From NCBI GenBank assembly GCA_018001935.1, contig JAGNHB010000018.1, forward strand, positions 14,286-78,285: DNA of 64,000 nucleotides, given 5' to 3'. Under the pieces are notes generated by a model. It was not told the origin of the DNA and searched no databases. It saw only the letters and a program-made list of their open reading frames with translations. The number at the start of each line of letters is the position of its first letter. Within the stretch, counting starts at the first letter, position 1. Below, piece after piece: positions 3,937 through 6,525 of this stretch. A program made the position numbers and the translations under genes. The DNA comes from Acidobacteriota bacterium (GTDB lineage Bacteria; Acidobacteriota; JAAYUB01).

Positions 3937-6525
3937 CTACTTCAGTTTTTCCAGGAACTCCGCCTCGGTGAGAACGGGGATGCCGAGGGAGCGGGCCTTG
4001 TTGAGCTTGGAGCCGGCGTCGGCGCCGCAGATCAAAAAGTCGGTCTTCCGGCTGACGGACGAGGCGGTGCGGCCGCCCAGGCGCTCGATCCGCTCGGAAG
4101 CCTCGTCCCGGGTCATGGCGGCGAGGGCCCCGGTCAGCACGAAGGTGCGGCCGGAGAAGAAATCGACGGCGGCGGGGGATTCGGGCGGCGGCGTGCCGGA
4201 TGCCGGCGATCCCGTGCCGCCTGGGGCGGAAGGCCTTGGTGGCGGGCTGCCGGAAGGGGTTCGGTCACTCTCGGGGCCGGCCCCGGCGGCCCCCGCGGGC
4301 CCGACCGCGAGGACCCCGCCACTCCCGCCGGCGGGCGTCCCGCCCGGCCCCGTCCCGTCGGGGGACTCCCCGGCACAGGGCCCCTCTCCAGTTTCCGCCG
4401 ACTCGCCCCCGGCGGCGAAGAGCACGCCCTGGACGGCGGCGTCCCCGGTCTCCTCGAAGCTGAGCCCCGAGGCCCGCAGGCGCTCCACCAGCGCGAGGTT
4501 CGACGGCTCGTCGAAGAAGGCCCGGACGCTCCCGGCGATGACGGGGCCCACCTCGGGCGTCTCGGCGAGTCCCTCGGCCGGGGCGGCGGCGAGGGCGTCC
4601 AGGGTCCGGTACCGCCGGGCCAGGACCTTGGCGGTGCGCTCGCCCACGAAGCGGATCCCGAGCCCGAAGAGGAGGCGGCGAAGCGGCAGTTTCCGGCTCT
4701 TGTCCAGCTCGTCGAGGAGGTTGCGGGCGGACTTCTTCCCCATCCGCTCCAGCCCCGCGAGTTCCGTCCCGTCCAGCGCGTAGAGGTCGGGGATTCCCTT
4801 CACGTGGCCCTTCTCCAGGAGTTGGTCCACCAGGGACTCGCCCAGGCCCTGGACGTCCATGGCCTTCCGGGAGGCGAAGTGGAGGAGCGAGGCCCGAAGC
4901 CGCGCCCGGCAGTCCGCGGAGACGCAGCGCAGCACCGCCTCCTCGGGCTCCCGGAAGACGCCGCCGCCGCAGACGGGGCAGTGGTCGGGCATTCGGAAGG
5001 GGGGCGGGTCGCCCTCGCGCTTCTCGGGGATCACGCTCACCACCTTGGGGATGATGTCGCCGCCCTTCTCGATGAAGACCCAGTCCCCGACCCGCACGTC
5101 CAGGCGCTCCACCTCGTCGGGGTTGTGGAGGGTGGCCCGCTGCACCAGCGAGCCGTCCAGGAAGACGGGGTCGAACTCGGCCACGGGGGTCAGCGCCCCC
5201 GTGCGCCCCACCTGCACCACGATGGCGTTGATGCGGGTGGCGGTCCGCCGGGCGGGGAACTTGTAGGCCACGGCCCAGCGGGGGCACTTGGAGGTGCTCC
5301 CGAGGCGTTCCTGGAGGGCGATCTCGTTGACCTTCACCACCACGCCGTCGATCTCCATGGGGAGGGCGTCCCGGAGGGGGTCCACCCGGCGGATGAAGGC
5401 CAGGACCTCCTCCAGGGAGTCGCAGACGGCGAAGGGCTCGCCCACCTTGAAGCCGAGCGCCCGGAGGTACGCCAGGGCGTCGGCGTGGCGGGCGAAGGCC
5501 AGCCCTTCCGCGATGACGCCCCAGGCGTAGAAGTCGAGCTTCCGCGAGGCGCTGACGCGGGGGTCGAGGTTGCGGATGCTCCCCGCCGCGGCGTTGCGCG
5601 GGTTGGCGAAGAGGGGTTCCCCGTCGCGCTTGCGCTGTTCGTTGAGCCGCTCGAAGCTCTTCACCGGCATCACCACCTCGCCCCGGACCTCCAGGCGCGC
5701 CCCGGTGGGTGTGGCGGGCGCGGGGGCGGGCGGTACGCCGGGGGCTTCGAGCAGCGGGGCCTCCCGGCGCGGCGGGACAGGTGGCGTGAGACGGAACTCG
5801 GGTTCCGGGGGGGGCGCCGCGGTCGGCGCCGGGGACTCTTCCGACAGGAACCCGGGCAGGATTGGCTGGCGGGGGCGCCCCGGGGACGTCGGCCCGGGCG
5901 CGGGAGCGGCCCCGGACCCCGTCACGGCGGCGGTGGACGGCACGGGGCCGCCCGGCGCCGAAGCGCTCAGCGCGAGCGGGACGGCCCGGATGGTCCGGAT
6001 GCTCGGCGTCACCACCTCTCCCGTGGCCCCGTCGCCCCGGGTGACGGCGGCGGCGAGGCGGCCGTCCGCGTAGATCAGGGACATGCTGAGGCCGTCGTAC
6101 TTGAGTTCGGCGGTGTAGGAGAAGGCCTCCCCCGGGAGGAGCTTGCGCACCCGGGCGTCGAACTCCCGGAGGTCCCCCTCGTCGTAGGTGTTGTCCAGGC
6201 TCAGCATGGGGACCTCGTGGGCCCGGGAGGGGAAGCTCTCGGAGGGTTTGCCGCCCACGCGCTGGGTGGGGGAGTCGGGGGTGACGAGGTCGGGGTGGAG
6301 CGCCTCCAGGTCCCGGAGGCGGCGCATCAGGGCGTCGAACGCGGCATCGTCGATCTCGGGCCGGTCGAGGACGTAGTAGAGGTGCTCGTGGCGCCGGATC
6401 TCCCGGCGGAGGTCCTCGATTTCCCGGCCGTCGGCGTCGATCTCCCCGCGGTCGGCATCGATCTCCCGGAGAATGGCATCGTTGGTTTCCATGGTGCGTC
6501 CCCCCGAAACGGTGGTGTGCGCCAT
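3937..6525 (-). CDS. ligA: NAD-dependent DNA ligase LigA with two long Pro/Ala/Gly-rich insertions
   Basis: adenylation motif ELKYDGLS; OB fold, Zn finger CPVCG, HhH and C-terminal BRCT all present; alternative start ATG at 6492 (METNDAIL). Confidence 0.85.

Follow-up and report, generated by a model that had tools for sequence, protein, structure and literature searches.

LigA, the NAD-dependent DNA ligase, is encoded on the reverse strand of a 64,000-nucleotide stretch of contig JAGNHB010000018.1 (here called the window; contig positions 14,286 to 78,285, assembly GCA_018001935.1), which comes from an uncultured Acidobacteria bacterium with a G+C content of about 72%. The gene very probably specifies a functional ligase lengthened at three sites outside the folded catalytic machinery, two of them occupied by long segments that are old and one, at the N-terminus, by a recent duplication. 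At the N-terminus, two extra units of 21 nucleotides (nt) would have been added by replication slippage or unequal recombination onto a pre-existing two-unit heptad, in this lineage only, lengthening the helix that stands ahead of domain Ia. The surface loop of the nucleotidyltransferase (NTase) domain that precedes catalytic motif III would have grown into a disordered, Pro/Ala-rich segment of 88 amino acids (aa), and the linker between the helix-hairpin-helix (HhH) and BRCT domains into a disordered, Gly/Pro/Ser-rich tether of 99 aa. Both long segments would go back to the ancestor shared by a small clade, being shorter at the depth of its outgroup P0004, and would then have drifted by substitution and in-frame insertion or deletion under weak constraint, motif islands excepted. 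They may act mainly as flexible spacers, whose composition would be shaped by a G+C-rich codon bias (CCN, GCN, GGN). Because they occupy a loop and a linker that are naturally variable in length, normal ligation is presumably retained. LigA thus appears to tolerate some 190 extra disordered residues, 88 of them adjoining a catalytic motif; taken as found, this matters little.

The reading frame as first delimited runs from 3937 to 6525 on the reverse strand (862 aa) and is open throughout. The coding sequence preferred here is 3937..6492 on the same strand, 851 aa plus the stop codon. Its start codon, the ATG at 6492, is kept in the DNA of the relatives L001 and L003 together with the G-rich sequence ahead of it; the ATG farther upstream, at 6525, falls out of frame in L001 and is missing in L003. 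Because of this difference in conservation, the most likely translation start is 6492, and the in-frame ATG at 6525 is probably not used. A database protein identical to the window LigA (P0001, 'MAG: NAD-dependent DNA ligase LigA [Acidobacteria bacterium]', NCBI; MAG, metagenome-assembled genome) is also 851 aa long and begins at 6492, so the gene extent up to 6525 given in the original prediction should most likely be shortened. Two long open reading frames (ORFs) lie antisense over ligA, at 3806-4783 (+, 325 aa) and 4804-6858 (+, 684 aa), and are taken as by-products of the high G+C content, not as genes.

All the domains expected of a LigA are present, as had been predicted. A Pfam search places each of them above the curated cut-offs: the NAD+-specific module, domain Ia (Nlig-Ia, PF22745, E=2e-8), the adenylation domain (DNA_ligase_aden, PF01653, E=8e-84, with its match split into two stretches), the OB domain (PF03120), the zinc finger (DNA_ligase_ZBD, PF03119), two HhH families (PF12826 and PF14520) and BRCT (PF00533). 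Motif I, KYDG, lies at 6091..6102 (-), and its adenylation lysine is the equivalent of E. coli K115 in the alignment to the E. coli LigA structure 2owo. In that alignment the catalytic motifs, including AYKFPA, match E. coli K115, E173, K290 and K314. The four-Cys zinc finger (CPVCGG ... RCVSADC) occupies 4909..4980 (-), and its four cysteines are invariant in the homologue alignment. Domain Ia comprises residues 34-82 (862-aa numbering), which align from E. coli residue 6 onward; the equivalents of Y22 and D32 are retained, and two substitutions, H23Y and Y35F, are found in close relatives as well. The ratio of nonsynonymous to synonymous substitution rates (dN/dS, Nei-Gojobori method, used throughout) is 0.12-0.20 for the core (residues 276-689) among the window gene, L001 and L003. 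Since these residues are conserved and the core has evolved under such constraint, the protein is probably a functional LigA with NAD+-dependent nick-sealing activity.

The best match among solved structures is E. coli LigA (2owo, E=1e-186), with which the window protein can be aligned end to end except for three extra segments. In the 862-aa numbering, residues 34-187 correspond to E. coli 6-160, residues 276-689 to 166-582 and residues 789-860 to 597-668. The seven-module layout and the catalytic motifs are common to the window protein and to canonical LigA (E. coli 2owo; Thermus filiformis 1dgs/1v9p), but the window protein has 851 aa instead of about 670. Counted from the ATG at 6492, about 17 extra residues precede domain Ia, among them those encoded by a 21-nt tandem array. 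Where E. coli LigA has a five-residue NTase loop, the window protein carries insertion 1 (5701..5964, -; residues 188-275), a surface segment of 88 aa directly before motif III, with 31% Pro and 17% Ala. Where E. coli LigA has a linker of 14 residues between the HhH and BRCT domains, the window protein carries insertion 2 (4162..4458, -; residues 690-788), of 99 aa, with 24% Gly, 17% Pro and 16% Ala. Both segments are delimited by the 2owo alignment, by their composition and by the model confidence described below. A Pro/Ala-rich insertion of about 85 aa had been predicted and is present, but it lies within the NTase domain before motif III (LEVRGE) and not at the NTase/OB boundary; the predicted linker of about 90 aa before BRCT is likewise there.

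An AlphaFold2 model of the 851-aa protein, built on an alignment of 52 sequences, has a mean predicted local distance difference test (pLDDT) score of 80.7. As many as 560 residues score at least 90, the folded domains lying mostly above that value, and the OB, zinc finger, HhH and BRCT domains are modelled confidently. Exactly two long segments, residues 180-262 and 686-767 in the 851-aa numbering, fall below a pLDDT of 50 and are devoid of secondary structure; they correspond to the two insertions, which are therefore predicted to be disordered. For the N-terminal repeat, the model has an additional helix (residues 2-14, pLDDT 59-67) in front of the helix of domain Ia. A Pfam scan of the window protein at E<=0.01 finds no family besides the LigA domains, and no intein or Hint domain in the insertions. 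Origin from an intein or another mobile element was rejected, given that the insertions have no domain matches and are predicted to be unstructured.

The homologue list consists of the 120 best matches in a collection of 5.8 billion proteins. Only four of these listed matches are long, P0001-P0004; the other 116 have 652-698 aa and are free of the insertions. Two of the long proteins, P0002 (824 aa, Logan assembly SRR11804627) and P0003 (832 aa, SRR22401302, syntenic with the window), with DNA sequences L001 and L003, are 81% identical to the window LigA and carry insertions at the same two sites. The third relative, P0004 (752 aa, GCA_964436005.1; DNA sequence L002), has both insertions in a shorter form and 61% identity overall. 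It is the nearest outgroup: its core is 75% identical, and the next matches reach only about 62-64%. Since the insertions are common to relatives at 81% and 61% identity, they are old. Judged from these alignments, both predate the split from P0004 and were later lengthened, or else were shortened in P0004, and they are lineage-specific linkers, not recent expansions. Conservation of the insertions in relatives, the finding that the original prediction itself named as speaking against recent expansion, is what is seen within the small clade P0001-P0004. Length differences among its members take the form of many whole-codon, in-frame gaps in a protein-guided codon alignment. The dN/dS of insertion 1 is 0.56-0.57 between the window gene and L001 or L003 and 0.41 between L001 and L003, and that of insertion 2 is 0.49-0.74 among the three.

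Scans of genome and metagenome contigs with the full protein return no carriers beyond P0002-P0004, the window's own genome lying outside the GTDB representatives that were scanned. As far as the databases searched show, the architecture is confined to four sequences and constitutes a new variant of a well-known enzyme. Other long LigAs (L087, L026 and L142) were considered and set aside; they have insertions at different sites, unrelated to those of the window.

It could be argued that the insertions were created by misassembly or frameshift errors, or that the gene is a paralogue in decay. The sequence comes from a metagenome-assembled genome, and the G+C content inside the insertions reaches 80-84%, which makes them difficult to sequence. 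The G+C content at third codon positions is also lower there, 0.875 in insertion 1 and 0.84 in insertion 2 compared with 0.97 in the core. Codons ending in A or T number 27 of 187 in the insertions and 26 of 664 elsewhere (Fisher 1.5e-6), an excess that persists when Pro, Ala, Gly, Thr and Ser codons alone are counted and that has the same direction in all three relatives; it may reflect weaker codon selection in disordered sequence. The Logan assembly of SRR11088395 is identical to the window over 3264 nt (6700..3437), and its contig breaks at 6700, inside a 9-nt intergenic array upstream of ligA and thus outside the gene. Because the frame is uninterrupted, because assemblies of three other samples have insertions at the same two sites and because this Logan contig is identical, the insertions are not regarded as artefacts. 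The alignment with orthologues that had been suggested as a check points the same way: the insertions are absent from most LigAs and sit at the same sites in P0002-P0004, which contradicts a frameshift or an assembly error. Decay as a pseudogene or paralogue was rejected on the dN/dS of the core, which is under strong purifying selection, and on the catalytic residues, all of which are retained; the insertions, moreover, match neither an intein nor any other domain. The chance that artefact or decay accounts for the gene is thus judged to be very slight.

The N-terminal array differs from the two long insertions in age and in structure. Tandem Repeats Finder (TRF) and a repeat search (family D3) place it at 6397..6469 (-), ahead of domain Ia, as 3.5 copies of a 21-nt unit with 78% matches. 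Read in register, it encodes the heptads AILREID / ADRGEID / ADGREIE / DLRREIR. Alignment of the window gene with L001 and L003 leaves a single 42-nt gap in the relatives, so that two units (14 aa) located within 6429..6474 (-), with boundaries that are ambiguous inside the repeat, are unique to this genome. The extra 42 nt (2 x 21) are missing from L001, L003 and L002 and from every other homologue, in DNA and in protein alignments. The N-terminus of the ancestor already held two imperfect units, AIRREIG / DLRREIR, and the copies of the array have since diverged to about 71-81% mutual identity. Because exactly two units are absent from all relatives, the alignments identify the array as an in-frame duplication of slippage type that belongs to this genome alone. 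The 21-nt tandem duplication at the N-terminus, as originally described, is thereby upheld.

The original prediction went further and proposed that the long insertions themselves expanded recently by slippage, through the mechanism that is also responsible for the intergenic arrays. The window is rich in intergenic arrays of short period, among them arrays with units of 14, 9 and 7 nt immediately upstream of ligA; the duplication at the N-terminus is genuine; and insertion lengths do vary between the members of the clade. Neither long insertion retains a tandem structure, however. TRF at score 30 and a repeat search find no array spanning either of them, only traces of 9 nt x2.9 and 6 nt x3.2, and the repeat search shows no DNA similarity between the insertions and the units of the intergenic arrays. 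Both are of low complexity but are not repeat arrays. They are also shared with relatives at 81% and 61% identity, and hence old, and they contain conserved islands. Recent expansion is accordingly held to be improbable for the long segments, and their description as repeat-like is not borne out, since P0002, P0003 and, in shorter form, P0004 share them and no tandem structure is found.

The site of insertion 1 is a different matter. Over a set of 207 LigAs, the length of the loop between RGDG+22 and the strand of motif III has a median of 12 and a 90th percentile of 25 residues; it is 90-93 in the window clade and 52 in P0004. Because this length varies so widely, the loop before motif III is a permissive site, a hot spot for insertions and tandem repeats across Acidobacteriota. 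Many LigAs of Pyrinomonadaceae type carry SEISNLKSEISNLK-like loops. In L164 (the gene of P0077, JGI 3300035667, Pyrinomonadaceae-like), TRF finds CTGAAAT x16 (equal to 21 nt x5.4) at 1981-2091, in frame within the NTase loop; this heptanucleotide repeat is read in all three frames and encodes heptads of the SNLKSEI type. In P0122, from the Blastocatellia clade, the same loop holds ERESGRAG x5. Such obvious tandem repeats lend some favour to a slippage origin. The proposal that slippage acts in coding DNA therefore stands for the N-terminal array and for the NTase loop of other Acidobacteriota, but not for the two long insertions of the window, and the tolerance of an essential enzyme for repeats is less unusual than had been supposed, since the same loop holds tandem repeats elsewhere in the phylum.

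Within the old and weakly constrained insertions, three short islands of 14-17 codons each have a dN/dS that is mostly far lower than that of their surroundings, although values from so few codons are noisy. In insertion 1, the island QPILPGF (5848..5868, -), which reads QLRLPGF in P0004, stands out in the alignments with a dN/dS of about 0.2 (range 0-0.21). A PxxPxR-like proline island (5761..5799, -; 14 codons) in the same insertion is conserved in the window protein, P0002 and P0003; its dN/dS is 0.06-0.21 between the window gene and L001 or L003, but 0.89 between L001 and L003. At the start of insertion 2, QGVLF (4417..4431, -; P0002 has QGALF) fits the β-clamp consensus QxxL(x)F strictly, and the 17-codon island around it, the best conserved of insertion 2, has a dN/dS of 0.05-0.4, against 0.43-2.7 in the remaining linker. 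Some points weigh against an account of spacers alone, or against its certainty. The presence of conserved islands speaks against insertions that are neutral spacers and nothing else; the clade has only four members, so that the rates of the short islands are noisy; and the Logan contig that agrees with the window may go back to the very reads from which the MAG was assembled.

A further function has been considered for these islands, namely that the insertions are tethers carrying β-clamp-binding motifs (QGVLF and QPILPGF) that recruit LigA to clamps left behind on DNA at the nicks between Okazaki fragments. Such tethers would be the bacterial counterpart of the NTase loop by which T4 ligase binds gp45, and they would add to the explanation given above without excluding it. 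The published β-clamp consensus is QL(S/D)LF and QxxL(x)F (PMC4976356), and the clamp-binding motif of MutL is QXX[L/I]XP, represented by QPLLIP in E. coli and QEMIVP in B. subtilis (PMC4678855). There are precedents among ligases. H. pylori LigA binds the β clamp, and its peptide 554-QEFIRSLF-561, near the BRCT domain, has been crystallised in the clamp cleft (PMC4976356). In T4 DNA ligase, gp45 is bound by a disordered loop of 26 residues (222-247) in the NTase domain, and this loop is dispensable for ligation; the authors of that study knew of no corresponding insertion in other ligases (PMC6212786). For M. tuberculosis LigA, on the other hand, clamp binding is reported to be absent (cited in PMC4976356).

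Several observations are consistent with such a tether. QGVLF fits the consensus strictly and lies within the slowly evolving 17-codon island, and a regular-expression scan of 162 parsed HhH-BRCT linkers, among which the long ones of some Melainabacteria-like sequences are artefacts of mis-anchoring, finds a strict motif only in the three close members of the clade. When the insertion of the window gene, or of L001, is compared with that of P0004, QPILPGF is the best composition-weighted segment in common, its score being reached in 19 of 1000 shuffles for the window and in 47 of 1000 for L001. This composition-weighted test was used because an ungapped-segment comparison of the window and P0004 insertions with BLOSUM62 was uninformative, Pro-rich diagonals dominating it. 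Both motifs lie in segments of predicted disorder, with a pLDDT below 50 and no secondary structure. Other findings speak against it: QPILPGF strictly matches none of QL[SD]LF, QxxL(x)F and QXX[L/I]XP, P0004 is devoid of QGVLF, the island rates come from 14-17 codons in four sequences only, three of which are closely related, and the closest relatives free of the insertions (P0005-P0009) have no loop motif.

Other Acidobacteriota provide a broader comparison. Strict matches occur in the NTase loops of L014 (QASLF), L098 (QSSLF) and L107 (QRGLF), three where 0.2 are expected (1 in 2000 shuffles), and P0010 and P0015 show similar motifs. A search seeded with L098 retrieved a Blastocatellia LigA clade (P0121-P0240), in which 53 of the 72 distinct long loops contain [QRKH]xx[LM][FL] and 22 contain a strict Q..LF (2.8 and 0.12 in shuffles), although kinship inflates the independence of these counts. 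Typical forms are KKQSPLFDGS and GKQASLFDDE, and GKKQSPLFDGSMKE is a longer peptide of this kind. The motif usually stands 6-7 residues (up to 12) before the end of the loop, after a charged spacer of highly variable length, at times tandemly repeated; a fixed motif beside a variable spacer has the appearance of a functional short linear motif. Only in this Blastocatellia loop is conservation of a motif between diverging flanks clear. None of 30 short loops in this group has a motif of the Blastocatellia type, so the motif has been lost in short-loop relatives and is hence dispensable. The Blastocatellia sequences are, besides, related by descent, and the shuffle statistics overstate their independence.

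These loops and insertion 1 represent the same NTase loop, expanded with low-complexity sequence or tandem repeats in P0121-P0240, L014, L098, L107 and L164, and many of them hold Q-x-x-L-F-D preceded by basic residues. They differ in that the Blastocatellia and other Acidobacteriota loops are of 18-62 aa, charged (Lys/Arg/Glu/Gly) and found in proteins with no extended BRCT linker, whereas the window loop is Pro/Ala-rich. The resemblance to T4 ligase is that of two disordered NTase insertions beside the motif III strand with a short hydrophobic motif in the middle. It is functional and not positional, since the T4 loop (222-247) follows motif III (D215/E217) and the window insertion precedes it. 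T4 ligase is furthermore ATP-dependent, its LDFLF docks on a trimeric clamp in helical form, and its loop has 26 residues, compared with 88 aa and a putative motif in the window protein. H. pylori LigA has a Q...LF-type motif near BRCT, and in the window LigA QGVLF is found about 10 residues after the HhH domain, at a position that may not be equivalent; it opens a long disordered linker, which is lacking in H. pylori LigA. The QPIL of QPILPGF resembles the QPLL of E. coli MutL (PMC4678855), but the proline is at position 5 in the former and at position 6 in MutL, whose motif lies in a folded dimerisation domain.

Recruitment of the window LigA by clamp-binding tethers is thus an option, although a doubtful one. 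With the same reserve, it can be suggested from the sequences that the Acidobacteriota LigA loop before motif III is a clamp docking arm, which in the window clade would have become a longer Pro/Ala tether joined by a second motif, QGVLF, in the BRCT linker. If this is true, a bacterial ligase would for the first time be seen to carry a clamp-binding element within its catalytic domain, one that has converged with the gp45-binding loop in T4 ligase. Little is established about the way in which bacterial LigA reaches the clamp at Okazaki nicks, the H. pylori peptide being the sole mapped site (PMC4976356). The interest of the window gene rises only if the Q..LF-type islands, and especially the widespread KKQSPLFD of Blastocatellia, do bind the clamp.

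The surroundings of ligA abound in repeats. The region upstream of the gene (6526-6852) is wholly a chain of short tandem arrays, made up of 14 nt x5.9 at 6563-6643, GTCAGACCT x11 at 6663-6761, 7 nt x5.7 at 6775-6813 and 7 nt x4.4 at 6823-6852. More short-period arrays are found at 826-1022, 23542-23840, 31763-31804, 32590-32924, 44111-44252, 46839-47007, 51522-51657 and 54499-54638. These have periods of 6, 9, 15, 18, 25 and 27, for example TCGGTA x14, TGCGAT x12, TCCCATTCA x10 and AAAGGACCA x5, and related units (CGATTGCGA-type, AAAGGACC-type and CCTTCAGCCTAACAG) recur at several sites. Two arrays have longer units, one of 37 nt x2.9 with 95% identity at 15480-15586 and one of 42 nt x2.4 with 85% identity at 48481-48580.

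Low-complexity coding sequence is also found in other genes of the window. The neighbouring ORF at 6844-7866 (-), of 340 aa and with no Pfam match, includes a stretch of 71 aa rich in Pro, Ala, Gly, Ser and Thr (PPPPGDAGAPGPCPGAVTPAPP...), with up to 87% G+C and in a style like that of the LigA insertions. At 34534-36834 (+), a Ser/Thr protein kinase is fused to an FGE-sulfatase domain, with Pro-rich low-complexity stretches of 75 and 48 aa between them. The first of these stretches holds an in-frame tandem repeat of 18 nt x3.3 at 35618-35677, which is the second case in the window of a tandem repeat in coding low-complexity sequence.

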